From an uncultured Actinomycetota bacterium (GTDB lineage: Bacteria; Actinomycetota; Actinomycetes; JAHEKZ01), in the NCBI GenBank assembly GCA_963743915.1, contig CAVURN010000005.1:518296-582295 (forward strand): a stretch of 64,000 nucleotides of DNA, read 5' to 3'. Within the stretch, counting starts at the first letter, position 1, and each line of letters opens with the position of its first letter. A program made the position numbers and the translations under genes. The notes under the pieces were generated by a model. It saw only the letters and a list, made by a program, of their open reading frames with translations, was not told the DNA's origin and made no database searches. Positions 6,842-52,313 of the stretch are shown here, piece by piece.

Positions 6842-6856
6842 GCGGTCGCTGCACGT

Positions 6857-6890
6857 CGAAGGCCCGCATCCCTGGGGATGCGGGCCTTCG
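6857..6890 (-). terminator. Stem-loop downstream of groEL
   Basis: CGAAGGCCCGCATCCC-tg-GGGATGCGGGCCTTCG, 25 bp after the groEL stop. Confidence 0.75.
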
Positions 6891-6914
6891 TGCCGTGCTG
6901 TGGTGAAGCGTGGA

Positions 6915-9192: not shown

Positions 9193-9260
9193 GTTTTCTA
9201 CGTCAGGGCGCCACGATTACCCGTCCCGTGGCGTGACCATGGCGCTCTGGCGTAGAAAAC
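9193..9260. repeat. Hairpin family D, copy 1
   Basis: GTTTTCTACGTCAGGGCGCCA...TGGCGCTCTGGCGTAGAAAAC; direct copy at ~10696-10758. Confidence 0.85.
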
Positions 9261-10695: not shown

Positions 10696-10758
10696 TTCCA
10701 ACGCCAGGGCGCCATGATGCCCCGTCCTGCGGCGTGACCATGGCGGTCTGGCGTAGAA
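10696..10758. repeat. Hairpin family D, copy 2
   Basis: ACGCCAGGGCGCCATG...GGCGTGACCATGGCGGTCTGGCGTAGAA, same orientation as copy 1. Confidence 0.8.
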
Positions 10759-17815: not shown

Positions 17816-19612
<1,797 letters not shown>

Positions 19613-19824
19613 GACCCACCTCTCGACAGGACGCCTCGTCCCTCCATGGTGTCCCGCACGTGGGCCGGTGGGGGCAGGGCCGGAGGTCCCGCGTGCACCC
19701 GGACGGTTCGACGCGCGACGACGAATGTCAAGTGCCCTGGGTCGGGTGCATCAGCTGCCCGGCAGGAGCACTATGGGGTCAGGCGCCCGTGTGGCGGTGG
19801 CCCGTTGCGACTCAGGAGGTAGCC

Positions 19825-20124
19825 ATGAGCGAGAGCACCTGGTTCATCGACCCTGAGGCCGGGCCTGTCTCGGCAGAGGACGACGACAACTACGACGAGG
19901 CTTTCGGGCCGGGCGACCCGCACCCCCAGGAGGGGCGGTTGGTCGAGGACGACGAAGGCGTCCGGAGCGACACCACGTCCGAGGCCGTGGCGCACGTCGC
20001 TGTCGGTGACACGGCGTGGAAGTCGGCGGAGGAGTCGGCGGTGCACGTGGTGGACGAGATGGCGCAGAGCGCCGAGGACCTGGTCGACCTGGACGCGCTG
20101 CCGGAAGACCCCGACGAGCGCTGA
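19825..20124 (+). CDS. Small acidic protein, DUF5709-like
   Basis: GRLVEDDEG and SAEESAVHVV motifs; AGGAGG RBS. Confidence 0.7.
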   Translation: MSESTWFIDPEAGPVSAEDDDNYDEAFGPGDPHPQEGRLVEDDEGVRSDTTSEAVAHVAVGDTAWKSAEESAVHVVDEMAQSAEDLVDLDALPEDPDER

Positions 20125-20135
20125 GCCTCCCGGCA

Positions 20136-20184
20136 ACAACGTGTAGGACTCGTGGGGTCATAGGCCCACAGTTCCTACACGATG
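20136..20184. repeat. Hairpin family B, solo copy
   Basis: ACAACGTGTAGGACTCGTGGGGTCATAGGCCCACAGTTCCTACACGATGT between convergent genes. Confidence 0.9.
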
Positions 20185-20187
20185 TCG

Positions 20188-20388
20188 TCAGAGGGGGCGG
20201 ACGGAGTCGGCCTGCGGGCCCTTCTGGCCCTGGGAGATCTCGAACTCGACCCGCTGGCCGTCCTCGAGGGCGCGGAAGCCCTCCATCTGGATCTGGCTGT
20301 AGTGGACGTAGACGTCAGGACCCTCGTCGACCGCGATGAAGCCGTAGCCCTTCTCGGCGTTGAACCACTTGACCGTGCCCTGAGCCAT
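20188..20388 (-). CDS. cspA: Cold-shock protein
   Basis: [25 protein letters not shown] (RNP1/RNP2). Confidence 0.96.
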
Positions 20389-20586
20389 GCGTCACTCCCC
20401 AGTCGTTTCGTCGACGATCTCGCCGACCGGCACACCGTAGTCCGATGTCCGCAGCGCAGCCTACGCCCCCCTTCGACCGTTTTGAGCGGAGGCTTGACCC
20501 CCGAGGGCCGTGTCGGCCCCGGATTCACGCCATTGGGGTAAGGAGTCCGGCCCATGGCCCGGAAGAGATTCCCCAAAGGCGTGCCG

Positions 20587-20862
20587 TCAGCCGCCGGCGA
20601 CCGCGGGGATGATCGAGATCGAGGTGCCCTCGGGGGTGGCGGTGGCCAGCCCCTCGGCGAAGCGGACGTCGTCGTCGTTCACGTAGACGTTGACGAAGCG
20701 TCGGATCGCCCCGTCGTCGTCCAGCACCCGGGCCCGGATGCCCGGGTGGGCCGCCTCGAGGGCGTCCAGCACCTCGGCGAGGCTACCGCCGTCGGCGGTC
20801 ACCTGGGCGGCGCCGCCGGTGTAGGGGCGCAGGATGGTCGGGATCCGGACGGAGACGCTCAT
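20587..20862 (-). CDS. MoaD/ThiS-family sulfur carrier protein
   Basis: MSVSVRIPTILR...FVNVYVNDDDVRF...IIPAVAGG (C-terminal di-Gly). Confidence 0.92.
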   Translation of the reverse strand: MSVSVRIPTILRPYTGGAAQVTADGGSLAEVLDALEAAHPGIRARVLDDDGAIRRFVNVYVNDDDVRFAEGLATATPEGTSISIIPAVAGG

Positions 20863-22142
20863 GCGAGGCCTTCCTGCTCGGCGAAGGCACGGAACTCTCC
20901 GTACCGGGGGCTGATGGTGACGGTGGGGGACGCCACGGGGACGACGGCGTCGAGGGTCTTGAGCCCGTCGCCGGTGTTGAGGATGACCGTCTCGGCCTCG
21001 GGGTCGAGCTCTCCGGCGCGCAGCAGCTTCTGGAGCGTTGCCACCGTGACGCCGCCGGCGGTCTCCGCGAAGATGCCCTCGGTCTCGGCGAGGAGCTGGA
21101 TGCCGGCGACGATCTCCGCGTCGGACACGTCGGCGATGGCACCGCCCGTGCGACGCGCGACGTCGATGGCGTACGGGCCGTCGGCCGGGTTGCCGATCGC
21201 CAGCGACTTGGCGATGGTGTCGGGCCGCACTGGCTGGACGACGTCGTGGCCGGCCGCCCACGCGGCGCTGACGGGCGAGCAGCCGGTGGCCTGCGCGCCG
21301 AAGACCGCGGTCGGCGCGTCCTCGACGAGCCCCAGCGCGACCAGCTCGCGGAATGCCTTGTCGACCTTGGTCATCAGCGACCCGGACGCCACCGGCGACA
21401 CCAGCTGGCGCGGCAGGCGCCAGCCGAGCTGCTCGGCCACCTCGTAGCCGACCGACTTCGAGCCCTCGGCGTAGTAGGGACGGAGGTTGACGTTGACGAA
21501 CCCCCACCCCAGGTCGCCGTAGACCTCCGAGCAGAGCCGGTTGACGTCGTCGTAGGTGCCGTCGACCGCGACGAGGGTGCCGCCGTACACCGCGGTGGTG
21601 ACGAGCTTGCCCGCCTCGAGGTCGCTCGGCGCGAAGACGCACGACTTCAGACCGGCGCGCGCGGCGGCTGCCGCAACCGCACCGGCGAGGTTGCCGGTCG
21701 AGGCGCAGCCGACCGTGGTGAACCCCAGCTGCTGAGCGGCGGTGAGGGCGACGGCGACGACCCGGTCCTTGAACGAGTGCGTGGGGTTGCCGCTGTCGTC
21801 CTTGACCCACAGCGCCTTCATCCCGAGGGCGCGCGCGAGGTTGTCGGCCTTGACCAGCTTCGTCATGCCGGGGGCGAGGTTCTTGCGGGACGCGACGTCA
21901 GCCGGGACGGGCAGCAGCGGGGCGTAGCGCCACATCGACAGCGGGCCGGTCTCGATGTCTGCGTGCGTGACGGTGCCGAAGTCGTAGCCGATCTCGAGCG
22001 GGCCGAAGCATTCCAGGCACGCGTACGAGTCGCCGAGCGGGGCGGTGGCCCCGCACTCGCGGCACACGAGCTCGCGAGCGGGGCCGAACGGGCGGTCCTG
22101 CGCGCCCACGGCGGAAGCCGGGGCATCCAGTGATGCGGTCAT
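20859..22142 (-). CDS. thrC: Threonine synthase-like PLP enzyme with N-terminal Zn ribbon
   Basis: CRECG..CLECFG; NPTHSFKDR (PLP Lys); ASTGNLA; TGDGLK. Confidence 0.9.
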   Translation of the reverse strand: MTASLDAPASAVGAQDRPFGPARELVCRECGATAPLGDSYACLECFGPLEIGYDFGTVTHADIETGPLSMWRYAPLLPVPADVASRKNLAPGMTKLVKADNLARALGMKALWVKDDSGNPTHSFKDRVVAVALTAAQQLGFTTVGCASTGNLAGAVAAAAARAGLKSCVFAPSDLEAGKLVTTAVYGGTLVAVDGTYDDVNRLCSEVYGDLGWGFVNVNLRPYYAEGSKSVGYEVAEQLGWRLPRQLVSPVASGSLMTKVDKAFRELVALGLVEDAPTAVFGAQATGCSPVSAAWAAGHDVVQPVRPDTIAKSLAIGNPADGPYAIDVARRTGGAIADVSDAEIVAGIQLLAETEGIFAETAGGVTVATLQKLLRAGELDPEAETVILNTGDGLKTLDAVVPVASPTVTISPRYGEFRAFAEQEGLA

Positions 22143-22154
22143 GCGGAGACACTC

Positions 22155-22282
22155 CTCATCTCTCCCGCACCGGGCGGTGCGGGCCGGATTTGGCACCTGC
22201 CCGCGTCCGAAGAGTTCGTCTCCGCGTGACCGGGGGGTTGCCGGGGCTTCATCGGGCCGATCCCTCTGCCCCTCGTGATGAG
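22155..22282 (-). ncRNA. SAM-I (S-box) riboswitch
   Basis: Minus strand CTCATCACGAGGGGCAGAGGGATCGGCCCGATGAAGCCCCGGCAACC...GGTGCCAAATCC...GATGAG; the P1 3' strand overlaps the GAGGAG RBS. Confidence 0.93.
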
Positions 22283-22456
22283 CGGTATGAAGTTGTCCTG
22301 CGAGTTGTTGAGCGTTGTGCCGTGCGATTTGCCGGGGGCCACGCGATCGGCGAGGCTCGACAGGGGTACGAGGGTAACGGACGCCGTGCTCGGCCGGGAA
22401 ACACAGTCCACCGGGCGAGACGGTCGTGCGGTACGCAGACCAGCTGAGGAGGCTTG

Positions 22457-23418
22457 ATGGACGCCGATGTCGCGCAGTGGTTCGCGCGTCGCTCCTCGCG
22501 CGCCCGCGACTGGCCGCTCGACCTGCTCGCCGCCGCCAAGGCGACACGACGGTCAGCGTCGTGCTGCCGGCGCTCGACGAGGAGTCCACCGTCGGGGCCA
22601 TCGTCGAGACCGTCCGGCGGCAGCTGATGACGGGCCCGCACCCCCTGGTCGACGAGCTCGTCGTCCTCGACTCGGGATCGACCGACGACACCGCAGCCGT
22701 CGCCCGCGCGGCCGGCGCACGCGTCGTCCACCGCGACGCGGTGCTGCCCGAGGTGCCCTCCGTGACGGGAAAGGGCGAGGCGCTGTGGCGGTCACTGGCG
22801 GCCACCTCCGGAGACGTCGTGGTGTTCGTCGACGCCGACCTGACGGCGTTCCACGCCTGCTTCGTCACCGGCCTGCTCGGACCGCTGCTGACCGACCCAT
22901 CGGTCGCCTTCGTCAAGGCGATGTACGACCGACCGCTCGCCAGTGGCGAGGTCGTGCACCCAGCGGGGGGTGGACGCGTCACCGAGCTGGTCGCACGTCC
23001 GCTGCTCAACCTGCACTGGCCCCGACTGGCGGGTTTCGTCCAGCCGCTCGCCGGCGAGTACGCAGCCCGACGCTCGCTGCTGGAGCGCCTCCCGTTCGCG
23101 ACCGGGTACGGCGTCGAGCTGGCCCTGCTGATCGACACCCTGCACACCGTCGGCCTCGACGCCATGGCCCAGGTGGATCTCGGCGAACGCCGCCACCGCC
23201 ACCACGACGACCTGCGTCTCGGCCGGATGGCCGCTGAGATCTGGCAGACCGCGCTGTCGAGGCTGCACCGCGACGGCGAGCCACAGATCGTGCAGTCGAC
23301 GATGACCCAGTTCGTGCGCGACGCGTCCGACTACCTCCCGGTCACCCGAGAGGTCGCCGCCCTCGAGCGGCCACCGCTGCTCAGCGTGGTCGGCGACGAC
23401 CGGAGGAGCAGCCGATGA
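22457..23418 (+). CDS. gpgS: Glucosyl-3-phosphoglycerate synthase (frameshift near 22540)
   Basis: VSVVLPALDEE, GKGEALWRSL, FVDADL, GGRVTELVARP, QPLAGEYA, GYGVE. Confidence 0.9.
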
Positions 23419-24230
23419 CGGCGCGCATCTTGTACAGCGACCTCGACGGCACGATGGTCGGCCCCGGGGGCTGCTTCGTGCGGGACGCGGACCGCGCCAC
23501 CACCCTCGAGCCGGCCCAGGCACTCATCGGTCTGCACGACGCAGGCGTCGTGCTGTCCCTGGTCTCCGGCCGCACGCGTGCGCAGCTGCAGGAGGCCGCA
23601 CGGATCTTCGGCGCCGACGGGTTCGTCGCGGAGATGGGCGCGATCATCGGCTGGGACCACGGCCGCCGGTCGAGCACGCTGACGGGCGACGCGCCCCCGG
23701 AGTTCGCCGGCCCGCTCGTGGCGCAGCTGGAGTCGATCGGCCTCGTCGACGAGCTGCTCGGCGAGCACGAGGGACGCCTCGAGCACCACGCCCCGTGGCA
23801 CCTCGGGCATGAGACCGACGTGATGCTGCACGGCAACGTCGATGTGGAGGTCGTGGACAAGTGGCTCGCCGGTCGCGGCTTCGGCTGGCTCACGCTCGCC
23901 GACAACGGACGCCTGATCTCCACGCACATGGAGGGGCTGGACGCGCCGACGCACGTCTACCACCTCATGGCCCGGGGCATCTCCAAGGGACGTGGGGTCG
24001 CGGCCGACCTCGAGCGGCGCGGCCTCTCGGCGTCCGACGCCGTGGCGGTGGGCGACTCGCTCTCCGACCTCGACATGGCTCCGCACGTGGGCCGGTTCTT
24101 CCTGGTGCGCAACGGCGTCGACGTGCCCGAGATCCGCGCGGCCGCCGAGGAGCTGCCGAACGTGACACTGTGCGACGGGACGCTCGGCGCCGGGTGGGCC
24201 GAGGCCGCCCGCTGGTGCGCGTCCGCCTGA
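23415..24230 (+). CDS. HAD-family phosphatase (MPGP/Cof-like)
   Basis: YSDLDGT, VSGRT, SKG, AVGDSLSD motifs; coupled to gpgS. Confidence 0.85.
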   Translation: MTARILYSDLDGTMVGPGGCFVRDADRATTLEPAQALIGLHDAGVVLSLVSGRTRAQLQEAARIFGADGFVAEMGAIIGWDHGRRSSTLTGDAPPEFAGPLVAQLESIGLVDELLGEHEGRLEHHAPWHLGHETDVMLHGNVDVEVVDKWLAGRGFGWLTLADNGRLISTHMEGLDAPTHVYHLMARGISKGRGVAADLERRGLSASDAVAVGDSLSDLDMAPHVGRFFLVRNGVDVPEIRAAAEELPNVTLCDGTLGAGWAEAARWCASA

Positions 24231-24313
24231 ACCCGAGAACCACGCATCCACGCACTGCTGCGCACCAGACTCCGGGGGCATCCTGTGAAGAACCCCGACG
24301 GGTCCGCTAGACT

Positions 24314-24329
24314 AGTTGAATCCTCAACT
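24314..24329. promoter_or_regulatory. Palindrome AGTTGA-atcc-TCAACT, possible operator
   Basis: AT-rich inverted repeat 20 bp upstream of the VOC gene start. Confidence 0.4.
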
Positions 24330-24348
24330 TTCTAAGGCGGCCGTCCGA

Positions 24349-24813
24349 ATGATCCACCACCTTTCGATCCCCGCCCGCGACCCGCACCACACCGTCGAGG
24401 TGTTCTGCGAGCTGTTCGGCGGCGGCGTCGTCACCCCGTTCGGCCCCTACCCCGGCTCGTGGATCGCCTGGTCCGGCGACGAGCACGGCACCGCCGTCGA
24501 GTGCTACCCGGTCGGCACCGAGATGTACCCGCCCGACGGCCCCGAGCAGGCGCAGTTCCGGCACGATCCCCGCGCCACCGGACACACCGCGACGCACGCC
24601 GCCATCTCGGTCGACCTCGAGGTGGACGAGGTGCTGGCGATCGCCGCCCGCGAAGGCTGGCGGGCGCTCGTGCTGCCCCGGGGTGGCTTCGACGTGATCG
24701 AGTTCTGGATCGACAACACCGTGATGATCGAGCTGCTGACCCCTGCGATGGCATCCGACTACCTGTCCGTGGTGCCGCGCTCGGCAACCAGCACAGCTTC
24801 CAGCAACGTGTAG
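24349..24813 (+). CDS. VOC/glyoxalase-fold protein
   Basis: IHHLSIPARDP, THAAISV, FDVIEFWIDNTVMIELL; stop codon lies inside hairpin B. Confidence 0.7.
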   Translation: MIHHLSIPARDPHHTVEVFCELFGGGVVTPFGPYPGSWIAWSGDEHGTAVECYPVGTEMYPPDGPEQAQFRHDPRATGHTATHAAISVDLEVDEVLAIAAREGWRALVLPRGGFDVIEFWIDNTVMIELLTPAMASDYLSVVPRSATSTASSNV

Positions 24814-24850
24814 GGAGTGTGGGGTCATGGCCCCCAGAAGGCACACGTTG
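24804..24850. repeat. Hairpin family B, degenerate solo copy
   Basis: CAACGTGTAGGGAGTGTGGGGTCATGGCCCCCAGAAGGCACACGTTG. Confidence 0.82.
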
Positions 24851-24906
24851 TTCCAGGGAGACAGGTCCGAAGACAGGCTCGAATTCCTGTGGCAGGCTCC
24901 GGTGCC

Positions 24907-26187
24907 GTGACTCCTGGAGACTCCTTCACCGCTGTCCGCTGCGGCTGGTTCGCTGACGTCGTCACCGGCGAGGTCGCCCGCGACGTGACCCTCGTGCTCG
25001 ACGGCGACCGCGTCGCCGACATCGTTCGTAACGGCGGGACGCCGCAAGGTCGCGTTCTCGATCTGCCCGACCACGTGGTGACCCCGGGCCTGATCGACCT
25101 GCACACCCACCTGACCGGTGAGGAGGAGACCGGGTCGTACGGCGACATCCTGATGGAGAGCGAGGCGGATGCTGCGCTCATCGGCGTGCACAACGCACGC
25201 CGGACCATCGACGCCGGTTTCACGACCGTTCGGGACGTCGGCGCGTTCCGCGCGTTCACCGACGTGTCGCTGCGCAAGGCGATCGACAACGGCTGGGTCG
25301 TCGGTCCGCGCATGCACTGCGCCGGCGCGTACGTCACCACGACCGACGGCGGCGGCGAGGTCACCGGCTTCTCGGCGGACGTCTGCGTGCCCGATGCACT
25401 GCGGTTCGGTGTCGCCGACTCACCGCACGAGGTGCGTCGTGCCGTGCGTCGGATCATGGCTCACGGCGCCGATCTCATCAAGGTGATCGCCACCGGTGCA
25501 GTGCTCGCGCCGGGGACGAACCCCGGTGCCCCGGAGTACACCGAGGACGAGATCCGCGCGGCGGTCGAGGAGGCGTCCAACTACGGCGCCTTCGTGGCGG
25601 CACACGCCCACGGGGCTGAGGGGATCAAGCGCGCGACGCGCGCCGGCGTCCGGTCGATCGAGCACGGCTCGTTCGCCGACGACGAGTCGCTGGCGTTGAT
25701 GGCGGAGCGCGGGACCTACCTCGTGGCCGACGTGTGGGCCGGCGACTGGATGGAGGAGGAGGGCACCAAGCACGACTGGCCCGCCGCCACCATGAAGAAG
25801 ATCATCGACACCACCGAGACGCAGCGCGACGCCTTCCGGCGCGCGCTCGCGCACGGCGTCCGGATCGGGTTCGGAACCGACTCGGGCATCTACCCGCACG
25901 GCATGAACATCCACCAAGTGGCCAAGCACGTCGAGCTCGGCATGAGCCCGATGGCCGCCCTGCGGTCGGCGACCCTGTGGGCGTCGGAGTGCCTTGGCAA
26001 CGACGAGGTCGGCGCACTGATCCCGGGCCGCTACGCCGACCTGGTCGCGGTCGAGGTCGACCCCGAGGTGCGGGCCGCTGTGGGGGCAGGCAGCCTCCCC
26101 GGGAGCGCGTCGGAGGTGCTGGGCGACCTGTCCCGCTTCGCCACTCACATGAGCCACGTGGTGAAGGGCGGGACGCTCGTCCGCTGA
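24907..26187 (+). CDS. Metal-dependent amidohydrolase
   Basis: PGLIDLHTH, GFTTVRDVG, AAHAHG, SIEHG, FGTDSG. Confidence 0.9.
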   Translation: MTPGDSFTAVRCGWFADVVTGEVARDVTLVLDGDRVADIVRNGGTPQGRVLDLPDHVVTPGLIDLHTHLTGEEETGSYGDILMESEADAALIGVHNARRTIDAGFTTVRDVGAFRAFTDVSLRKAIDNGWVVGPRMHCAGAYVTTTDGGGEVTGFSADVCVPDALRFGVADSPHEVRRAVRRIMAHGADLIKVIATGAVLAPGTNPGAPEYTEDEIRAAVEEASNYGAFVAAHAHGAEGIKRATRAGVRSIEHGSFADDESLALMAERGTYLVADVWAGDWMEEEGTKHDWPAATMKKIIDTTETQRDAFRRALAHGVRIGFGTDSGIYPHGMNIHQVAKHVELGMSPMAALRSATLWASECLGNDEVGALIPGRYADLVAVEVDPEVRAAVGAGSLPGSASEVLGDLSRFATHMSHVVKGGTLVR

Positions 26188-26197
26188 CCACCCCAAC

Positions 26198-26248
26198 GGG
26201 TGCGGTGTGACACCGCATTCGTTGATTGAAGGCGGCGTCACACCCATG
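26198..26248 (+). repeat. Hairpin family C, copy 1
   Basis: GGGTGCGGTGTGACACCGCATTCGTTGATTGAAGGCGGCGTCACACCCATG. Confidence 0.82.
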
Positions 26249-26301
26249 CGGTGGGCGCGCAGACGGCCACACCCTGTCGATGATCGCTTCTGACGGTGCG
26301 G

Positions 26302-26931
26302 CTACTTGCGGTCGGCGTCCGCCAGGATGAGCGTCAGCGCGTTGGGAGGCATGGGCGCCGAGGCGGGCCAGACCCGGCTGATGCCGGCCGCCTTGGCGAG
26401 CCGGTCGGCCGCCGCGCGGTCGCCCGAGTAGAAGTACACGGTGTCGTCGGGGACGTTGCCGATCCAGTTGTCGACGCCGACCACATCCCATCCGAGCGAC
26501 TCCAGCTTGTCGCCGGTCTGCCCGGCCAGCCCACTGATCGGTGTCTGGTTGAAGACATAGACGGCGATCTTCGGCACCGGCTGCGCGGTCTCGTCGTTCT
26601 TGTCGCCGCCGTCCTCCTTGTCACCGTCCTTCTTGCCACCGTCCTTGGTCGGCTCGGTGGAGGGCTCGCTCGAAGGGTCATCGGAGGGTTCGTCCGTCGG
26701 CGGCGTCGTGGCCGGCTGCGTCGGCTGCGACGCTGCGCCAGTGGGCGACGAGGTGTCGGTCTCGTCGTTGCCGGCCGTCATCAGCATCCACGCCGCCAGA
26801 CCCATCGCCGCCAGCACGGCGACGACGCTCAGCAACGGCAGCAGCAGGGGCGTCGACGCCTCAGGCTCGGGCGCAGGCGCAGCGCGGTGGGCCCCACCGC
26901 TCCGCGGCTGTGGCGACTCGGGCGTCGACAT
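26302..26931 (-). CDS. LytR C-terminal domain membrane protein
   Basis: TM, P/T/S linker, VYVFNQTPISGLAG..LGWDVVGVDN..TVYF. Confidence 0.82.
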   Translation of the reverse strand: MSTPESPQPRSGGAHRAAPAPEPEASTPLLLPLLSVVAVLAAMGLAAWMLMTAGNDETDTSSPTGAASQPTQPATTPPTDEPSDDPSSEPSTEPTKDGGKKDGDKEDGGDKNDETAQPVPKIAVYVFNQTPISGLAGQTGDKLESLGWDVVGVDNWIGNVPDDTVYFYSGDRAAADRLAKAAGISRVWPASAPMPPNALTLILADADRK

Positions 26932-26940
26932 GCCCCTGGC

Positions 26941-27234
26941 TCAGACGGTGGCGCCGAGGCGTCGCGCCGAGCGAGCACGCTGACGGGCGGCGCGCAGCCG
27001 GCGGAGACGCTTGACCAGCATCGGGTCCGCCGCGAGGGCGTCCGGACGGTCGATGAGCGCGTTGAGGACCTGGTAGTAGCGGGTGGCCGACATGTCGAAG
27101 AGCTCGCGGATCGCCTGCTCCTTGGCGCCGGCGTACTTCCACCACTGCCGCTCGAACGCCAGGATCTCCTGCTCCCGCTCGGTGAGACCCGAGCCGTTCT
27201 CCGGGCTGGCGGTGGTGTCGGCAGCGGCATCCAT
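26941..27234 (-). CDS. DUF3263 domain protein
   Basis: ILAFERQWWKYAGAKEQAIRELFDMSATRYYQVLNALID. Confidence 0.9.
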   Translation of the reverse strand: MDAAADTTASPENGSGLTEREQEILAFERQWWKYAGAKEQAIRELFDMSATRYYQVLNALIDRPDALAADPMLVKRLRRLRAARQRARSARRLGATV

Positions 27235-27410
27235 GTCGCAGGCTCTCCTTGCGTCGACGCAGTCTCTCCGTGGCCCTCCGCTCGCGGGAGGGGGTGCTGA
27301 GGCGGCCCAGGCTTCCCCTCCCGGGCCGCAGCGCCATCGTAGGCCCCAAATCCCAACGATGTCATTCACCCCGCAACATCCGGCGTCGGCAGCCGCACTA
27401 GGGTCGGCGC

Positions 27411-27746
27411 ATGCCCTGCTACGTGGTCCACGCCTCCACCCAGGAGCTGACCCCCGACCCCCTCGACGCTGACCAGGTCGTGAGCGGAAACCCGCAGGTC
27501 AGCGCCTACGAGCTGCTCGACACCGAAGCCCTGGCGGTGGGCATCTGGCAGCACACGGCGGGGGTGTCCACCGACGTCGAGGTGGACGAGATCTTCGTCG
27601 TCCTGACCGGACGCGCCACGATCGAGGTCGCCGGTGGGCCGACCCTCGAGGTCGGTCCCGGCGACGTCGGCGTCCTCGAGGCGGGGGCCCAGACCACGTG
27701 GACGGTCCACGAGGACCTTCGCAAGATCTACATCATCCGCGGCTGA
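27411..27746 (+). CDS. Cupin (DUF861-like) protein
   Basis: VSGNPQ, GIWQHTAG, DEIFVVLTG, WTVHEDLRKIY. Confidence 0.85.
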   Translation: MPCYVVHASTQELTPDPLDADQVVSGNPQVSAYELLDTEALAVGIWQHTAGVSTDVEVDEIFVVLTGRATIEVAGGPTLEVGPGDVGVLEAGAQTTWTVHEDLRKIYIIRG

Positions 27747-27784
27747 GCCTGCCGAGGGACGCGACGCACCGCGTCCCGACCGCG

Positions 27785-27834
27785 ATGGGTGCGGCGAAAC
27801 CTTCGATCAATGAAGGCGGTGTCACAGGGCACCC
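27785..27834 (-). repeat. Hairpin family C, copy 2 (inverted relative to copy 1)
   Basis: Reverse complement GGGTGCCCTGTGACACCGCCTTCATTGATCGAAGGTTTCGCCGCACCCAT. Confidence 0.78.
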
Positions 27835-27850
27835 ACAAAGGGGGTGCGGG

Positions 27851-29206
27851 TCAGCCCGCCATCGTGTCGAGGATCAAGCTCACGTCCGCCTCGGTGGTGC
27901 GAGGGTTCACGACCGCGAAGCGGGTGACCGTCTCGCCCTCATGGGTCGTGGGCAGCACGAAGGCGAAGTTCGCGGCCAGCAACCGGTCCGACCAGGCGTA
28001 GTACTGCTCGCGCTCCCACCCGATCCGCCGGAACACCACCACGGACAGGTTGGGCTCGCGCACCAGCTCCAGGTACGACCGCTGCCGGACGCCGTCCGCC
28101 GCCGCCCGGGCGACCGCGAGCGTCCGCTCGACCGCGTCCGAGTACGCCTGGGTGCCGTGCGTGGCGAGGCTGAACCAGAGCGGCAGGCCACGGGCGCGCC
28201 GTGAGAGGTGCACCGCGTAGTCGCTGGGGTTCCACTCGGTGTCCTCGTTGATCGCCTCGAGGTAGCCGGCGGTCTGCGTGTGGGCAGCCTTGCCGAGCGC
28301 CGGCTCGCGGTAGATGAGCGCGCACGCGTCGAAGGGGGCGAACAGCCACTTGTGCGGGTCGACGATGAACGAGTCGACACCCTCGATGCCGTCGAAGATG
28401 GCGCGCGCGCTCGGCGCGCACAGCGCAGCCAGCCCGTATGCACCGTCGACGTGCACCCACAGGTCGTGCTCGCGTGCCACCCGGACGGCGCCTGCAATGT
28501 CGTCCACCACGCCGTAGTTCGTGGTCCCGCCGGTGGCGACGATCGCGAAGACGTCGTCCACGCCGTGCTCGTCCAGCGTGGCCCGCAGCGCGTCCTCCGT
28601 CATGCGTCCGTGCTCGTCGACAGGGACGAGGACGATGTCGACGTCCATCACGCGAGCCGCGTGCTGCATCGACGAGTGCGCCTCCGCGCTGCAGACGAAC
28701 ACCCACCGGTCGGGGCGTCCGCCACCCCGCTTGGCGGTCGCGGTGTGCCGCGCCGCCACGAGCGCCGAGAGGTTGCCGTTCGTCCCGCCCTGCACGAAGC
28801 ACCCACCGGCGGTCTCCGGCATGCCCGCCAGGTCGGCGATCCAGCGCAGCGCCTGGTTCTCGGCGTACACGGCGCCTGCGCCCTCGAGCCACGAGCCGCC
28901 GTAGATCGACGACGCGCCCACGACCACGTCGAAGAGCGTGGCCGCCTCGGTCGGCGCGGCCGGGATGAAGGACAGGTAGCGCGGGTTGTCGACCGAGACG
29001 GTGGCCGGCGCCAGCACCTCGGTGAAGACCCGCAGCGCCTCGTCCCCGCCGAGACCGTCGGCGGTGATCGTCTGCCCTGCCCGCTCGCGCAGCACCGCGG
29101 GGGGCTGCGGGCCGTCCAGCGGCACCGGGTCCATGCGGAGCCGGGTGCGGGCGTAGTCGATGACCTGCTGCAGGAGCCGCTCGGTGTCGGCGTCGAACGT
29201 GTGCAC
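27851..29206 (-). CDS. Group II PLP-dependent amino acid decarboxylase
   Basis: GGTNGNLSAL, AHSS, WVHVDGAYG, DPHKWL. Confidence 0.9.
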   Translation of the reverse strand: MHTFDADTERLLQQVIDYARTRLRMDPVPLDGPQPPAVLRERAGQTITADGLGGDEALRVFTEVLAPATVSVDNPRYLSFIPAAPTEAATLFDVVVGASSIYGGSWLEGAGAVYAENQALRWIADLAGMPETAGGCFVQGGTNGNLSALVAARHTATAKRGGGRPDRWVFVCSAEAHSSMQHAARVMDVDIVLVPVDEHGRMTEDALRATLDEHGVDDVFAIVATGGTTNYGVVDDIAGAVRVAREHDLWVHVDGAYGLAALCAPSARAIFDGIEGVDSFIVDPHKWLFAPFDACALIYREPALGKAAHTQTAGYLEAINEDTEWNPSDYAVHLSRRARGLPLWFSLATHGTQAYSDAVERTLAVARAAADGVRQRSYLELVREPNLSVVVFRRIGWEREQYYAWSDRLLAANFAFVLPTTHEGETVTRFAVVNPRTTEADVSLILDTMAG

Positions 29207-29297
29207 GCCTGAACTGTAGGGCCGTAGCGGCGTCCGCGACCCTGCGGAGCAGTCGGGCGTGGGGGCGACATCTGACGCCGGGTGGGCTACCGTGGCC

Positions 29298-29319
29298 TAA
29301 CCTACGGAACCGTAAGTTA
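29298..29319. promoter_or_regulatory. Palindrome TAACCTACGG-AA-CCGTAAGTTA upstream of desaturase
   Basis: 10-bp arms with 1 mismatch, 22 bp before the GTG start. Confidence 0.55.
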
Positions 29320-29341
29320 CGCCGTCACCCGAGGAGCCGCT

Positions 29342-30283
29342 GTGCCCGCTTCTGTCGACGACCCCCAAGCCGTCCGGCTGCTGACCGAGCTCGAGCCGGT
29401 GGTGAGCCAGGAGATCGAGCGACACCTGACGATGGCGCGCGACTGGTACCCGCACGAGTACGTGCCGTGGAGCGACGGCGTGACGTTCGCCGGCGTCCTG
29501 GACGGTGAGCCGTGGGAGCCGACGCAGCAGAAGTTCTCCGAGGCGGCTCGCGCGGCGCTGATCGTCAACCTGCTGACCGAGGACAACCTGCCGAGCTACC
29601 ACTTCGAGATCGCCAGCCAGTTCGGACGCGAGGGTGCGTGGGGCGAGTGGGTGCACCGGTGGACGGCGGAGGAGGACCGGCACGCGCAGGTGATTCGCGA
29701 CTACCTCACGGTGACGCGCGCCGTCGACCCGCAGGAGCTCGAGGATCTGCGTATGAAGCACATGCAGACCGGCTTCACGGCGCTGCACCCCGGCATGCTC
29801 GGCGGGCTGGCGTACGTGTCGTTCCAGGAGCTCGCCACGCGCGTGTCGCACCGCAACACCGGCAAGTCCACCGGCGACCCGGTGGCGGAGCAGATGTTCC
29901 AGCGCATCGCGCTCGACGAGAACCTGCACATGGTGTTCTACCGCAACATGCTGGGGGCAGCGTTCGAGCTCGCACCCGATGACGTCATGGGCGCCGTGCG
30001 CGACGTCGTGCTCGACTTCAAGATGCCGGGGCACGACATCCCCGGCTTCCAGCGCAAGGCCGTGCAGATCGCCGTCGAGGGCATCTACGACCTGCGGCAG
30101 CACAAGGACGAGGTGCTGATGCCGGTGCTGCGCCACTGGAAGGTCTTCGAGCGCACCGACCTCGGACCCGAGGGCGAGAAGGCGCGCGACCAGGTCGCCG
30201 AGTTCCTCGAGGAGCTCGAGACCACGGCGTCCCGCTTCGAGCAGAAGCGTGACGCCCTCAAGGCGCGCCTCGCCTCCCGCTGA
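29342..30283 (+). CDS. desA: Acyl-ACP desaturase (DesA-like)
   Basis: WYPHEYVPW, LLTEDNLPSY, WTAEEDRH, SFQELAT, DENLH di-iron motifs. Confidence 0.92.
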   Translation: MPASVDDPQAVRLLTELEPVVSQEIERHLTMARDWYPHEYVPWSDGVTFAGVLDGEPWEPTQQKFSEAARAALIVNLLTEDNLPSYHFEIASQFGREGAWGEWVHRWTAEEDRHAQVIRDYLTVTRAVDPQELEDLRMKHMQTGFTALHPGMLGGLAYVSFQELATRVSHRNTGKSTGDPVAEQMFQRIALDENLHMVFYRNMLGAAFELAPDDVMGAVRDVVLDFKMPGHDIPGFQRKAVQIAVEGIYDLRQHKDEVLMPVLRHWKVFERTDLGPEGEKARDQVAEFLEELETTASRFEQKRDALKARLASR

Positions 30284-30296
30284 CCTGCCCCTCGCC

Positions 30297-30346
30297 ACAA
30301 CGTGTAGGAATCGTGGGCCCATGACCCCACGGTCCCTACACGTTGT
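30297..30346 (-). repeat. Hairpin family B, left flank of AbiEi/DUF559 gene
   Basis: ACAACGTGTAGG...CCTACACGTTGT; inverted relative to the 31376 copy; contains the gene's TAG stop. Confidence 0.92.
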
Positions 30347-31316
30347 TGAGCTGGACGGCGAGGCAGCCGGGGCTGCACGCCTTGAGCGGACCTGGCCACC
30401 CGTGGTGGGACAGGACTGTGCCCACCTCCAGTGCGGCTCGACAAGGTTCTTCCATGTCGGCATGGCCGTACCGGAGAGTTGACTTCCTGCTCACCGTGCT
30501 CGCGTTGTCGCGGCGCATGTCGCGGTGGCGCCCTGAGCCCTCGTGGCCGGCGCGTCCGTCGAGCTCGACGACCGTCTCGTACTCGTCATAGTGGACGTCC
30601 TTGCGGGTCGTCACGCCGTTCAGCCGTGACAGCACCTGACGGCGCCCAGTGGGCAAGCCGTGCGATCGCTCCACTCGGATGAGGTACTTGTGCTCGAGGG
30701 GGCTCTCGATGCCGCCGACCACGTCGCACAGCACATCCTTGACCAGCTGACGGTGCCGTTGGCGGCGACGGTGTCCCATCGCCTCCAGGATGGCTACTGG
30801 GGCCACGGCGTCCGTGCGACAAGCGTCGGTGATCAGGCCGACAACGGCGTCCGGCGCCCGCAGCTGGCCCACGAGATCGAGCACCGTGTCGGCGGGCGTG
30901 GTGATCGGCCAGCCCTGATATGTGGTGTCCTTGCCCGGGAGAAGGCGTGAGCGGTGCAGACGCACCCCCGGGGGAGGGACGACGACGCGGTCGGCGGGTA
31001 CACAGACATGCACCCACCGACTGCGCGGGAATGGGACGGTGAAGACCTCAGCGGCAGTCTCATGGCTGAGGACCGCACCCTCACCGCACGCGAGGAGCGC
31101 CGCCCACCGCACGCTCACGAAGGCCGGGGCCATGTTGCCGAGCAGGAAGATGCCCTCATGCAGCCGGCGGCACCGCCCCGCGGCGATCTGACTTCGCACC
31201 ACCTCATAGCCGAATCCGAGCTGATCGATCTGGCTGCGCGAGAAGACGCCCCCTTGCGTCCGGGCAAGCGTGCGGAGGGCGTCCAGCATCTGTGCACCAC
31301 GAGTCACCGAAGACAT
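30336..31316 (-). CDS. AbiEi-antitoxin-like wHTH + DUF559-like nuclease-domain protein
   Basis: LARTQGGVFSRSQ..GRCRRLHEGIF, AVLSHETAA, PITTPADTVLDL, GIESPLE, DVHY..VVELDGRAGH..DMRRDN; no toxin partner. Confidence 0.82.
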   Translation of the reverse strand: MSSVTRGAQMLDALRTLARTQGGVFSRSQIDQLGFGYEVVRSQIAAGRCRRLHEGIFLLGNMAPAFVSVRWAALLACGEGAVLSHETAAEVFTVPFPRSRWVHVCVPADRVVVPPPGVRLHRSRLLPGKDTTYQGWPITTPADTVLDLVGQLRAPDAVVGLITDACRTDAVAPVAILEAMGHRRRQRHRQLVKDVLCDVVGGIESPLEHKYLIRVERSHGLPTGRRQVLSRLNGVTTRKDVHYDEYETVVELDGRAGHEGSGRHRDMRRDNASTVSRKSTLRYGHADMEEPCRAALEVGTVLSHHGWPGPLKACSPGCLAVQLNNV

Positions 31317-31375
31317 GGACGCACCTTGGTGCGTCCTCCCGACGCGGCGCAGGCGTTCGCTCCCCCTGTGCACAA

Positions 31376-31423
31376 CAACGTGTAGGAACTGTGGGGTCAT
31401 AGGCCCACGATTGCTACACGTTG
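31376..31423 (+). repeat. Hairpin family B, right flank of AbiEi/DUF559 gene
   Basis: CAACGTGTAGGAACTGTGGGGTCATAGGCCCACGATTGCTACACGTTG. Confidence 0.92.
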
Positions 31424-31427
31424 CGGG

Positions 31428-32729
31428 TCAGGACGAGGCGGCAGCGCGCAGCGCGGTCACCACCAGCGTGCGCGCCACGGCGCCCACCTCCGAGACGCGG
31501 ACCTGCTCGATCGCCGCGTGCGCATGGCGGACGTCGCCGGGACCGTAGTGCAGGCTCGGGATGCCACCGCCGTTGTAGAGCCGAAGGTCGCTGCCGTAGG
31601 GCGCACCGCGCGGACGCGGACGTTCACCGCTCACATCCGACGCCGCGTCCTGCAGCGTCGGCAGCAGCCAGTGGTCGTCAGGTGCCGCAACACCCGGGTA
31701 CTGCCCGCTGGCGAACTGGCCGCCGCTCCACTCCACGCGCACCGGGTGGTCACGCAACCACGGGTCGGCGGCGGACGCCTCGGCGACGCGTTCCTCCAGC
31801 GATGCGCGCGCCACCGCGACGTCCTCGCCGAGCTGCACGCCGTAGCGCCCCTCTGCGGTGAGCCGGTCCGGGACGGTGCTCGACCAGTCACCGGCGTCCA
31901 CCCGGCCCACCAGCAGCGGGTACGCGATCGGGTACTCGGCCATCAACGGCGAGACCTCCTCGTTGCGCTCGCGCTCGAGGTCCTGCAACGCCTGGTACAC
32001 GGGGAGGAACACGTCGAACGCCGAGACACCGGCGTAGCGCGTGCTGCCGTGCGTCGCAGCACCTTCGACATGCAGCGTGAAGGTCAGAGCGCCACCAGTG
32101 GCGGTGATGACGGTGCCGCTGGTGGGCTCGGTGATGACGCACGCGTCTGCGGTGTGCCCGCGGCGCAGGGTCGCGAACGCGCCCAGCCCGCCGTCCTCCT
32201 CGCCGCCGACCGAGTGCACCGCGACCCGCCCCGGCAGCTGGACGCCGGACCGCACGAGCGCCTCCACGGCGACCAGGTTCGCCACGACCCCGGCCTTCAT
32301 GTCGCACGCGCCTCTGCCGAAGAGCACGTCCCCCTCGCGGCGTGGCACGAAGGGGTCCCCTTGCCACTGGCGAAGGTCACCCGGAGGGACGACGTCGACG
32401 TGACCCTGCAATGCGAGCACGGGAGTCGCGTCACCCTCGCCGAGCACGCCGACCGTGCCCCACGCCTCGTCGCGCGGGGCCTCCATCCCGGGGAACTCCG
32501 GGTCGGACGTGACGTCGGCAAGGTCGATCTGCCAGTGGTCGACCGCGCAGCCGAGCTGCTCGAGCCGGTCGGCCACCCACCGCTGCGCGTCCGCCTCCGC
32601 CGCCGTGCCCGTCACGCTGGGGATCGCGATGAGCTCACCCAGCAGGGACGCCCAGTGCTGCTCTCCGAGGTCGTCGACGGCGTCGAGCGCGGCGCGCTCG
32701 GACCGCGACAGGTCGCCCGTCGGGCTCAT
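31428..32729 (-). CDS. ArgE/DapE-family M20 deacylase
   Basis: LQGHVDVVP, FGRGACDMKAG, GEEDGG, TEPT, AHAAIE. Confidence 0.9.
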   Translation of the reverse strand: MSPTGDLSRSERAALDAVDDLGEQHWASLLGELIAIPSVTGTAAEADAQRWVADRLEQLGCAVDHWQIDLADVTSDPEFPGMEAPRDEAWGTVGVLGEGDATPVLALQGHVDVVPPGDLRQWQGDPFVPRREGDVLFGRGACDMKAGVVANLVAVEALVRSGVQLPGRVAVHSVGGEEDGGLGAFATLRRGHTADACVITEPTSGTVITATGGALTFTLHVEGAATHGSTRYAGVSAFDVFLPVYQALQDLERERNEEVSPLMAEYPIAYPLLVGRVDAGDWSSTVPDRLTAEGRYGVQLGEDVAVARASLEERVAEASAADPWLRDHPVRVEWSGGQFASGQYPGVAAPDDHWLLPTLQDAASDVSGERPRPRGAPYGSDLRLYNGGGIPSLHYGPGDVRHAHAAIEQVRVSEVGAVARTLVVTALRAAASS

Positions 32730-33586
32730 GCGCGCCAGAGCGGCTGCGTCAGGCAGGTGGGCCCACCGTCACCCTTCACGGCGACCTCGGTGCCGGCGAA
32801 CTCGTGCACCTTGACGCCTGCAGCGAGGAGCTTGGCCAGCACCTTGGGGTTGTCAGCGGCCAGCACGACCTCGCCCGGCGCGACGGCCAGGATGTTGGCT
32901 CCCTGCGTGAGCATCTCGTCCTCATCGACGGTGATCCGCGAGATGCCACGCTCCTCCAGCAGCTCGAGCAGCGCGACCGGTGCCAACGGTTCGAAGACGA
33001 CGGCGAGGTCAGGCGCGATGGGGGAGATCACGCTCATGAGGTGCAGCACGGCATCGGGGCCGAGGTAGTGCGGCAGGTCGACGTCGATCACGGTGACGCC
33101 GTGCGGCTCGAGCAGAGCCTGGAACTGTTCGACGGCGGAGGCGTTCGTCCGGTAGCCGCGTCCCACGACGAGCGTCTGCGCATCGAGCCAGACCTTGTCC
33201 CCTCCGTCACTGACCGCGTCACCGGTGAGCGCACCCAGCACCGGGACTCCCAACCGCTCGAAGTCGGCACGCATCGCAGCTGGCTCCGGCGAACGCACCG
33301 GCTTGCGCATCTGCAGCAGGATCGACCCGAACGGCGTCATCACGGCGGGATCGTGGGTGTAGACGGCGTCGACGAGACCCTCGACCGGGTCAGCGACGAG
33401 GACCTCGGCACCGGTGCTGCGCAGCAGCTCCACGAACTCGGCGTGCTGCGTCAGCAGCAGCTCGCGGTCCGGCTCGCGCCAGTGCCCGTCTGCGACGAAC
33501 TCCCCCACCGTGGTGGGCGTCCGCACGAACACCTTCTTCAGCGGCGAGACCATGTCGGGCGTACCCCAGCCCTGCAGTTCACTCAT
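32726..33586 (-). CDS. Amidinotransferase / dimethylargininase (pentein) family protein
   Basis: DAVYTHD, DGGD, GYRTN, VLHL, GGPTCLT (Cys-His-Asp triad). Confidence 0.85.
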   Translation of the reverse strand: MSELQGWGTPDMVSPLKKVFVRTPTTVGEFVADGHWREPDRELLLTQHAEFVELLRSTGAEVLVADPVEGLVDAVYTHDPAVMTPFGSILLQMRKPVRSPEPAAMRADFERLGVPVLGALTGDAVSDGGDKVWLDAQTLVVGRGYRTNASAVEQFQALLEPHGVTVIDVDLPHYLGPDAVLHLMSVISPIAPDLAVVFEPLAPVALLELLEERGISRITVDEDEMLTQGANILAVAPGEVVLAADNPKVLAKLLAAGVKVHEFAGTEVAVKGDGGPTCLTQPLWRA

Positions 33587-51040: not shown

Positions 51041-51042
51041 AC

Positions 51043-51094
51043 GGGTGCGGTGTGACACCGTTCCCGTTGATTGCAGGAATCACCGCACCCATGG
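51043..51094 (+). repeat. Hairpin family C, copy 3
   Basis: GGGTGCGGTGTGACACCGTTCCCGTTGATTGCAGGAATCACCGCACCCATGG. Confidence 0.88.
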
Positions 51095-52261: not shown

Positions 52262-52313
52262 CCATGGGTGCCGCCATACCTGCAATCAACGGGAACGGTG
52301 TCACACCGCACCC
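52262..52313 (-). repeat. Hairpin family C, copy 4 (inverted relative to copy 3)
   Basis: First 35 nt of its reverse complement are identical to copy 3. Confidence 0.88.

Follow-up and report, generated by a model that had tools for sequence, protein, structure and literature searches.

In an uncultured member of the Actinomycetota, the gene for a 326-aa protein and the two hairpins enclosing it probably constitute one unit of a partnership between a repeat and an enzyme, comparable to REP/RAYT systems but built on an unrelated nuclease. Because the gene is framed by a palindrome that is also scattered elsewhere, and its relatives are framed by palindrome families of their own, this looks like a repeat-enzyme partnership that has not been described. 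An earlier note on this DNA had proposed a REP/RAYT-analogous system based on a PD-(D/E)xK-type nuclease, a proposal supported by the hairpins found at homologues, the specificity of the palindrome families, and the variability of the locus. The features discussed lie as follows in the window, i.e., the whole 64,000-nt stretch of DNA analyzed (palindromes carry no strand):

30336-31316, minus strand: gene for the 326-aa protein, an ORF from ATG (MSSVTRG...)
30298-30345: left 48-nt palindrome of family A, directly past the desaturase stop codon
31376-31423: right 48-nt palindrome of family A, 59 nt upstream of the nuclease-gene start
31366-31374, minus strand: TGTGCACAG, the form that the T(G/A)TCCACAG motif takes at the nuclease gene
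20137-20184: solo family-A palindrome, flanked by a convergent gene pair
24804-24852 (contig C5:543099-543147): divergent solo copy of family A
20526-20586: solo palindrome of family B, whose copies bracket paralogue P2

The nuclease gene is free-standing between two convergent genes, encoding an acyl-ACP desaturase and an M20 peptidase, which agrees with the desA-argE placement given earlier. The description of two inverted hairpins of about 48 bp around the gene, with its stop codon inside the left one, is borne out by the coordinates and the pairing: the left hairpin has the TAG stop (30336-30338) in its right arm, the right palindrome and the stop codon of the peptidase gene are 4 nt apart, and the two hairpins pair in inverted orientation over 57 nt, with 89% complementarity and 1018 nt between them. 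The arm pattern has three matches in the window (≤3 mismatches) and none in 100 dinucleotide-preserving shuffles. Folding energies of the hairpins as single-stranded DNA are -13 to -21 kcal/mol (z -4.5 to -7.3), a stability that none of 200 shuffles reached. A search of window positions 19000-33000 placed no Rfam family at the hairpins; the matches in that interval were a SAM riboswitch, an ASdes sRNA, and a chance miRNA match only. No target-site duplication is visible at five family-A copies or in comparisons of occupied with empty sites, as the earlier reading of the junction also had it, and the same material revealed no defined insertion site, which counts against the partnership. The T(G/A)TCCACAG motif recurs in 47/70 homologous loci, each time after the upstream palindrome and ahead of the start codon; it probably serves the nuclease gene as a promoter or operator element and does not belong to the repeat.

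The two-domain architecture previously suggested for the protein, AbiEi-like at the N-terminus and DUF559/Vsr-like at the C-terminus, is recovered in its predicted structure. In Pfam, AbiEi_4 was the sole match to the 326-aa protein (E 9e-4; 19.7 bits, the cut-off being 25 bits), with neither a transposase domain nor PF04480 detected; PF04480 is above the cut-off in paralogue P5 and is present in 2/120 homologues among the matches listed. Sequence searches against solved structures gave AbiGI/AbiEi alone for the family profile (E ~0.25) and no match at E ≤ 10 for the C-terminal 127 aa. In the AlphaFold model (pLDDT 91), residues 5-197 align with AbiEi (6y8q; Z 13.5, 185 residues aligned), and the N-terminal ~200 residues also resemble Rv2827c (1zel; Z 9.2). 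Residues 203-307 align with the DUF559 protein 3hrl (Z 10.8, rmsd 2.6, 91 aligned), the homing endonuclease I-Bth0305I (3r3p; Z 10.4), and Vsr (1cw0; Z 8.9). As modeled, the protein is therefore an AbiEi-type winged helix plus a second domain, fused to a Vsr/DUF559-type PD-(D/E)xK nuclease domain. Across 46 homologues, E208, E216, D240, E251, D253, and H258 do not vary, and E208, D240, and E251 are likewise invariant in all nine paralogues of the genome; these acidic and histidine residues would correspond to the catalytic residues of Vsr. Cys292, Cys314, and Cys318 in the tail are also conserved. Substitution rates in the coding sequence point to purifying selection on the gene, with dN/dS of 0.08-0.28 (20/21 orthologue pairs with computable dS) and 0.11 in the least saturated pair (dS 0.93). 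A predicted homodimer of the protein (A1, two copies) scored 0.15 against a mark of 0.42, which weighs neither way.

The N-terminal module shares its fold with AbiEi of the type IV AbiE toxin-antitoxin system and with Rv2827c, but here it is fused to a C-terminal nuclease domain, occurs in nine copies per genome, and has no AbiEii partner, adjacent or elsewhere. The absence of an AbiEii toxin and a transposase from the neighborhood, noted from the sequence alone, extends to the genome (assembly 90% complete), where neither PF08843 (AbiEii) nor PF01797 (Y1/HUH transposase, RAYT) has a match; control genomes do match PF01797. AbiEi antitoxins act at their own promoters, where they bind inverted repeats. 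The AbiEi-like module could accordingly be an autorepressor or a wider regulator acting on palindromic operators, with the nuclease domain as a defense or toxin effector, the scattered palindromes as regulon sites or terminators, and the repeats spread by something else. We regard this as improbable. It is in keeping with the clear AbiEi fold, with the conserved motif standing between the start and a palindrome 59 nt upstream of it, and with the location of palindromes at gene ends, the usual position of terminators; however, the genome lacks the toxin, and the second palindrome sits at or over the stop codon, away from the promoter. The distribution and turnover of the palindromes, described below, also bear on it.

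The gene had been called an orphan, but it is one of nine paralogues in the genome, and therefore is not. Five of the nine are bracketed, each by a different dispersed palindrome family, as would be expected if hairpin families were specific to protein clades:

P1 (the 326-aa gene): family A, 6 copies
P2 (C5:90902-91906, outside the window): family B, 12 copies
P3: family C, 27 copies
P6: family H, 37 copies
P9: family I, 32 copies

A genome-wide count of the hairpin, one of the checks suggested at the outset, thus yields a dispersed family of six copies, including that at 20137-20184; this is few compared with classical REPs and counts against the partnership. Bracketing was counted on same-family repeat pairs, with a gene background of ~2300 crude calls. 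Ten adjacent same-family pairs lie 500-2500 nt apart, and five of them enclose P1, P2, P3, P6, and P9, in gaps of 987-1075 nt. The other five enclose unrelated genes or stretches, and no dispersed repeat was found on both sides of P4, P5, P7, or P8; both observations count against the partnership. Three of the unrelated genes inside such pairs were identified, encoding an amidase, a TANGO2-like protein, and an AlaX-like protein. That the same repeat families frame these genes as well is what could be expected if ordinary terminators or unrelated REP-like repeats had come to lie on both sides of the nuclease genes by chance. Such a coincidence, already disfavored by five of nine paralogues each being bracketed by its own family vs. 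five other same-family pairs genome-wide, is very improbable, and the distant homologues discussed below argue further against it.

The layout of the families themselves recalls REP elements. Six inverted doublets of family H, their halves 17-46 nt apart, are REPIN-like, and the P6 cassette has the layout of a family-H doublet with the gene as its spacer. Most palindrome copies lie outside crude ORFs (102/114), and 49/114 fall between convergent genes; divergent, and hence promoter-bearing, gaps are avoided (6/114), the background being 21% for each class, which is not what regulatory operators would lead one to expect. No gene remnants were found next to solo palindromes. The paralogues have a GC3 of 0.73-0.82, below the genome median of 0.88.

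Comparison of the desaturase/M20 junction in relatives, likewise suggested earlier, showed that it varies, with full, hairpin-only, and empty states after desA. The cassette is present at this junction in 9/16 desaturase-bearing genomes, from two genera. In one genome (G003) only a hairpin stands downstream of the desaturase, and in another (G006) the junction is empty and the nearest homologue (67% identity to P1, 74% to the orthologues in G005/G008) is hairpin-bracketed at another locus. Within a species, the left and right hairpins of the cassette resemble each other; between species they are unlike. Hairpins from the same species and different sites had an identity of 0.75 (25 pairs), vs. 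the background level of 0.53 for the same site in different species (88 pairs) and 0.50 where neither site nor species was in common (265 pairs); these values exclude site S3 of G009, where automatic extraction mis-registered the palindrome. The palindromes thus show concerted evolution within genomes. Repeated fresh insertion at favored sites could produce the same pattern, which counts against the partnership. Occupancy also differs by site, with palindromes at S3 in 8/10 genomes and at S4 in 5/14, and the position orthologous to the solo site at 20137-20184 is occupied in 8/10 genomes of the genus that have both anchors. From one species to the next, the sequence at an orthologous site is exchanged for another, and a site filled in one species may be empty in another; the palindromes thus behave as repeats rather than as a regulon, contrary to a purely regulatory role. 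Other observations among relatives count against the partnership: G018 has at least nine palindromes of the related ATTGCGGAAG type, its nearest homologue being a frameshifted pseudogene that no palindromes flank, and G003, G010, and G004, without a close P1 orthologue, keep 1-4 ATTGCGGAAG-type palindromes.

Replacement of the cassette can be seen at the level of strains. In two metagenome runs from two studies (X2 and X7), strains that are 99% identical have some other sequence where the whole cassette would stand: their contigs, which show 2-3 differences across the flanking genes, diverge from the window at 30289 and rejoin it at 31433, so that the breakpoints are 8-9 nt outside the hairpins. 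A 14-nt motif from the start of the replacing sequence had no similar match (≤1 mismatch) in the genome or the fetched loci. Inversion of the gene between its inverted hairpins was considered as the cause of these alleles and rejected, because the breakpoints lie outside the hairpins. Of the word "mobile" in the original description, then, a part stands: the junction states differ and strains replace the cassette, but it is constant at the same junction in nine genomes of two genera.

These data also invite a reading as a homing-type selfish cassette, in which the gene and both palindromes would be mobile, the nuclease cutting a solo palindrome and repair, templated by a gene-bearing copy, pasting the gene in. 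Solo palindromes would be targets, or footprints left after the two palindromes around the gene recombine and delete it, like solo LTRs. Such a cassette overlaps with the partnership and differs from it in what gets propagated. Vsr-fold nucleases are proven homing enzymes (PMC3239194), and homing would fit the bracketed homologue at a different locus in G006, where the desaturase junction is empty, the hairpin-only state in G003, the low GC3 of the paralogues, and the replacement of the whole cassette between near-identical strains with breakpoints just outside the hairpins. We nevertheless consider it unlikely. Each family in the source genome has one gene vs. 4 to ~35 gene-less copies, the solo copies have no adjoining gene remnants, and the cassette has kept to one junction in nine genomes of two genera; moreover, homing accounts for the spread of the gene and not for palindromes reaching new sites.

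The arrangement extends well beyond this genus. Among 70 distant homologues from across Actinomycetota, long palindromes occur upstream in 36/70 loci and downstream in 29/70, vs. 0-1 of 68-70 control windows, which answers positively the question raised earlier of whether homologues in general have flanking hairpins. Upstream and downstream palindromes formed a repeat pair within the same locus in 27/70 cases, vs. 41/4830 across loci. Bracketing in distant genera thus recurs with unrelated palindrome sequences, and with controls near zero, which is difficult to reconcile with chance placement of repeats. Only about half of the 70 homologues have long palindromes, and this counts against the partnership. 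At least 1930 database clusters match the protein family at E ≤ 1e-5, and homologues are labeled "AbiEi family antitoxin domain-containing."

The closest parallel is with the REP/REPIN elements and RAYT (REP-associated tyrosine transposase) genes that Nunvar in 2010 and Bertels and Rainey in 2011 reportedly described in Proteobacteria. In both cases a single-copy gene lies between inverted copies of the palindrome cognate to it, further copies of that palindrome are dispersed outside genes, singly or as inverted doublets, multiple gene/repeat pairs exist side by side in one genome, and the gene keeps a fixed locus over species while the repeats are uniform within a genome. Here, however, the host belongs to Actinomycetota, copies number in the tens rather than hundreds, the downstream repeat overlaps the stop codon, and the enzyme combines an AbiEi-type module with a Vsr/DUF559 PD-(D/E)xK nuclease. 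As it is not a HUH/Y1 transposase, the chemistry must differ. MITEs and insertion sequences are also distinct, the 326-aa gene having no transposase domain and the copies no visible target-site duplication.

On the nuclease side, Vsr-like nucleases form a clade listed as "VSR, DUF559, DUF2726" (PMC3424549). I-Bth0305I is described as a multidomain, homodimeric Vsr-fold nuclease with a pseudopalindromic target (PMC3239194). The 326-aa protein resembles it and the EDxHD Vsr-like homing endonucleases in its Vsr-fold catalytic domain (Z 10.4) and multidomain build, and also in a long (pseudo)palindromic target, here putative, and in selfish-element logic (PMC3239194). It differs in its AbiEi-like N-terminal module, in a putative target that is a multi-copy repeat instead of a single conserved gene site, and in being encoded by a gene that stands free between others and not within a self-splicing intron or intein. 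Short DUF559 proteins such as E. coli YcjD belong to the same nuclease fold family, but YcjD has ~117 aa and no AbiEi module, and in MG1655 it has unlike structures on its two sides, with no matched pair.

The anatomy, the fold, the pairing of one gene with one palindrome family, the conservation of the arrangement, the concerted evolution of the repeats, and the presence/absence polymorphism are shown by the data above; the enzymology is inferred. For the partnership we propose the following mechanism. The protein would recognize its own family of ~46-48-bp palindromes and then nick or cut them, with its winged helices on the outer arms and its nuclease domains near the palindrome center; it would probably act as a dimer, in the manner of I-Bth0305I on the pseudopalindromic site of that enzyme. 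Recombinational repair that draws on other copies, i.e., gene conversion, would keep a palindrome family uniform within a genome, and would occasionally add, replace, or remove copies, the gene-bearing copy included. With palindromes mostly at the 3′ ends of genes, little harm would result, and a double role resembling that of terminators may exist.

The literature search, with subscription journals and supplements outside its scope, returned no description of this gene-palindrome arrangement. In the literature covered, nothing relevant linked DUF559 to palindromes, repetitive extragenic elements, or AbiEi, and nothing concerned REPIN/RAYT, or REPs with a flanked nuclease, in Actinobacteria; on Vsr nucleases with hairpins and mobility, the one paper that matched was a superfamily survey; none of the ycjD papers among the matches listed dealt with repeats.

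It is conceivable, at slightly less than even chances, that Actinomycetota evolved a second, independent answer to REP/RAYT, in which thousands of proteins annotated as "AbiEi antitoxin domain" or "DUF559" are palindrome-specific nucleases, each maintaining a private palindrome family, and its uniformity, by cleavage-triggered gene conversion, with its gene riding in its own doublet and able to home into other copies. If true, this would give a function to a large group of proteins with several copies per actinobacterial genome (at least 1930 clusters), now labeled as antitoxins despite having no toxins. It would also supply the enzyme behind short palindromic repeats of high-GC Gram-positive bacteria, where RAYT is absent, and the REP-with-caretaker-gene arrangement would have had at least two origins, on enzyme folds unrelated to each other. 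Natural nucleases with long (~46 bp), family-specific recognition sites would be possible tools. The repeats break assemblies and mark changes in synteny, and are thus relevant to the reading of metagenome-assembled genomes.

The P1 gene, a nuclease-like gene, lies between an acyl-ACP desaturase gene and an M20 peptidase gene, and the locus is arranged as follows.

Layout of the P1 locus (window coordinates)
29282-30283, acyl-ACP desaturase gene (PF03405), neighbour of P1
30298-30345, left palindrome, 48 nt, with the P1 stop codon inside
30336-31316, minus strand, P1 open reading frame, 326 aa, ATG start, TAG stop
31376-31423, right palindrome, 48 nt, 59 nt before the P1 start and 4 nt from the peptidase stop
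31428-32729, M20 peptidase gene, convergent neighbour of P1

The earlier note had described a 326-aa frame between two inverted 48-nt palindromes with the stop codon inside the left one, and this description was borne out. The palindromes match each other in inverted orientation over 57 nt (89% complementary); their arm pattern occurs three times in the window and in none of 100 shuffles, and the single-stranded folds have energies of -13 to -21 kcal/mol (z-scores -4.5 to -7.3). Within the desaturase gene, an antisense match to the ASdes sRNA family (RF01781) was found at 29672-29739 (minus strand; 45.6 bits, gathering score 40), and the window also holds a SAM riboswitch (RF00162) at 22153-22284 (minus strand; 77.7 bits, E 3e-17).

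Pfam returned a single, sub-threshold match for the P1 protein, to AbiEi_4. An AlphaFold model built on 46 homologues was confident (pLDDT 91, pTM 0.86) and was compared by all-against-all structural search.

Structural matches of the P1 model
Residues 5-197, AbiEi antitoxin 6y8q, Z 13.5
Residues 203-307, DUF559 protein 3hrl, Z 10.8
Residues 205-307, I-Bth0305I homing endonuclease catalytic domain 3r3p, Z 10.4
Residues 203-306, Vsr 1cw0, Z 8.9

These matches agree with the AbiEi-like N-terminus and DUF559/Vsr-like C-terminus proposed from sequence, and Foldseek likewise pointed to AbiEi and Rv2827c. A published survey groups VSR, DUF559 and DUF2726 together with the structures 1cw0, 3hrl and 3r3p as a single clade (PMC3424549). 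All 46 aligned sequences share E208, E216, D240, E251, D253, H258 and three cysteines, and we infer that the invariant residues correspond to the catalytic residues of Vsr. The cysteines (residues 292, 314 and 318), confined to the clade of P1 and its paralogue P2, lie in a C-terminal tail encoded directly beside or inside the downstream palindrome (window about 30363-30443) and may form a metal site. Among seven P1 orthologues dN/dS was 0.08-0.28 (20 of 21 pairs with computable dS), which indicates purifying selection on the gene.

P1 had been called an orphan, which it is not: the source genome (G000; 2.92 Mb in five contigs, 90% complete) contains nine paralogues with its architecture. This whole assembly has no match to AbiEii (PF08843) or to Y1/HUH transposases (PF01797). 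Nor is P1 likely to be an antitoxin. Searches of paralogue flanks and a genome-wide profile census identified five dispersed palindrome families, each bracketing a different paralogue, as expected if hairpins are specific to protein clades; the genome-wide count of the P1 hairpin suggested by the earlier note gave the figure listed for family A.

Paralogues bracketed by palindrome families
P1, window 30336-31316, family A, 6 copies
P2, C5:90902-91906, 42% identical to P1, family B, 12 copies
P3, C3:486512-487504, family C, 27 copies
P6, C1:646303-647403, family H, 37 copies
P9, C5:20871-21893, family I, 32 copies

Among the 114 elements there are 10 adjacent same-family pairs 500-2500 nt apart, and five of them enclose exactly P1, P2, P3, P6 and P9, with gaps of 987-1075 nt. 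The other five enclose other genes or stretches, three of which were identified (an amidase, a TANGO2-like protein and an AlaX-like protein). Such unrelated contents lie between copies of families C and H at window 9199-9257 and 10701-10758, 26195-26247 and 27784-27837, and 51041-51092 and 52264-52315, the first and last pairs holding the amidase and the AlaX-like tRNA-editing protein; bracketing by these abundant repeats is therefore not exclusive to the nuclease genes. Flank searches found no dispersed repeat on both sides of P4, P5, P7 or P8. Both the unrelated genes framed by the same repeats and these four unbracketed paralogues speak against a strict dependence between gene and repeat. 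P4 lies inside the window (5805-6914, minus strand; 27-28% identical to P1, 28% by tblastn); upstream of it is a 44-nt perfect-stem palindrome (window 6796-6839, C5:525091-525134), and no dispersed family was found flanking it. Family H copies are also found as six inverted doublets, their spacers 17-46 nt long, and the P6 cassette (gene plus flanking palindromes) is such a doublet with the gene as spacer. At C2:554887-555172, family-I units are repeated in tandem in two blocks that face opposite ways and together make up a palindrome of about 290 nt. With ORFs called crudely, the 114 copies divide into 49 in convergent, 47 in tandem and 6 in divergent gaps and 12 inside ORFs; in the background, 21% of gene arrangements are convergent, 59% are tandem and 21% are divergent. 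GC3 of P1-P9 is 0.73-0.82, below the crude-gene median of 0.88.

The P1 protein family was matched in 35 of 41 related genomes, a tally that takes in the unpublished G025 and G033, and the desaturase in 16 genomes, G000 included. Comparison of the desaturase junction revealed full, hairpin-only and empty states.

State of the junction after the desaturase
Cassette present: G000, G002, G005, G008, G009, G007 (degraded), G011 (gene in two pieces), G012 (at contig end), G014 (another genus)
Solo palindrome only: G003, G018
Contig end inside palindrome: G001
No palindrome: G006
Distant desaturases (57-67% identity), no cassette within 1.5 kb: G013, G015, G017

In G006 the nearest homologue (67%) lies at another locus and is likewise bracketed. 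In G018, which has at least nine related palindromes, the nearest homologue is a pseudogene broken by a frameshift, and this also weighs against strict dependence; no palindromes were found flanking that pseudogene. Left and right palindromes are alike within species and unlike between species, the arms being, for example, of type CAACGTGT... in some and CATTGCGG... in others, with inner stems also different.

Solo copies turn over as well. The site orthologous to the copy at window 20137 is occupied in 8 of the 10 genomes that have both anchors (G012 and G006 being the empty ones), and that of C2:62137 in 5 of 14 (empty in nine). Across 28 elements at four orthologous sites (the mis-registered site S3 of G009 left out), palindrome identity was 0.75 within a genome at different sites (25 pairs), 0.53 at the same site in different genomes (88 pairs) and 0.50 where neither was common (265 pairs); same-site nearest neighbours occurred only inside the closely related trio G005, G007 and G008. 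Since comparisons between most species show saturation at synonymous sites of the P1 gene (dS above 1.3), the likeness of palindromes within a genome needs homogenisation or recent re-copying. Strains were compared by aligning contigs from four metagenome runs to window 29300-32400. Contigs in X2 and X7, runs from different studies, diverge from the window at 30289 and rejoin it at 31433, carry the same unlike sequence in place of the whole cassette, and show 2-3 differences over 350-450 nt of flanking genes (99% identical). Strains that are almost identical thus differ by the whole cassette, the breaks falling 8-9 nt beyond the palindromes. Depth was about 0-2 within the cassette versus 10-35 in the flanks, and an X3 contig spans the desaturase, left palindrome and P1 3′ end (30136-30554, 5 differences). 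The locus is thus not invariant, given the full, hairpin-only and empty states after the desaturase in relatives and the X2 and X7 strains without the cassette.

The association extends beyond close relatives. Among relatives' loci, 19 had flanks long enough for comparison (L010 left out), and in 10 of these the upstream and downstream flanks shared a repeat (E <= 0.004; one positive, L019, from the unpublished G025). A distant sample of 80 Actinomycetota loci, among them Jiangella, Planosporangium, Actinopolymorpha and Kribbella, had 70 with enough flank, and 29 of these had a paired flank repeat. Many homologues do have flanking hairpins: palindromes counted as long (15 or more of the 18 outer positions paired) lie upstream of the gene in 36/70 loci and at its stop codon in 29/70, versus 0-1 of 68-70 for four kinds of control window. 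Their absence from about half of the distant homologues again argues against strict dependence. Upstream and downstream matches were found in 27/70 same-locus versus 41/4830 cross-locus comparisons, the own-locus partner being the top match in 19 of the 27. The motif T(G/A)TCCACAG occurs on the sense strand in 47/70 loci versus 1/70 inside the gene, and may be a promoter or operator. It is placed between the start and the upstream palindrome, at a median distance of 31 nt from the one and usually 5-20 nt from the other. It accompanies P1, P2, P5, P6 and P8 in G000, and was not found beside the solo repeats of that genome. At P1 it lies at window 31366-31374 (minus strand); the homologous loci surveyed fall within L050-L129.

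P1-type genes are, then, associated with families of repeats. The most economical mechanism would have the protein recognise its own palindromes and cut them, after which recombinational repair would make the copies uniform and reshuffle them; the propagated unit could be the palindrome, the gene-bearing doublet, or both. The proposed logic is common to Vsr-fold homing endonucleases. REP/REPIN-RAYT systems consist of a repeat family with a flanked caretaker gene, and the mechanism proposed for P1 would match them in behaviour but with an enzyme of a different kind. I-Bth0305I is a multidomain homodimer whose footprint, about 60 bp long, surrounds a pseudopalindromic centre (PMC3239194). Three structures lie near the DUF559 gene ycjD of E. 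coli MG1655 (L166, 1351000-1352400): a perfect 17-bp-stem hairpin overlying its start, a GAGGGG/CCCCTC-rich inverted pair at and past its stop, and, 106 nt downstream, a 39-nt stretch that repeats, at 90%, a piece of its 3′-terminal coding sequence. These structures differ between the two sides and form no matched pair. No published description of the gene-plus-palindrome arrangement was found in literature outside subscription journals. The P1 system resembles REP-like repeats in that its putative caretaker gene is flanked by them, but this caretaker comes from an unrelated protein family.
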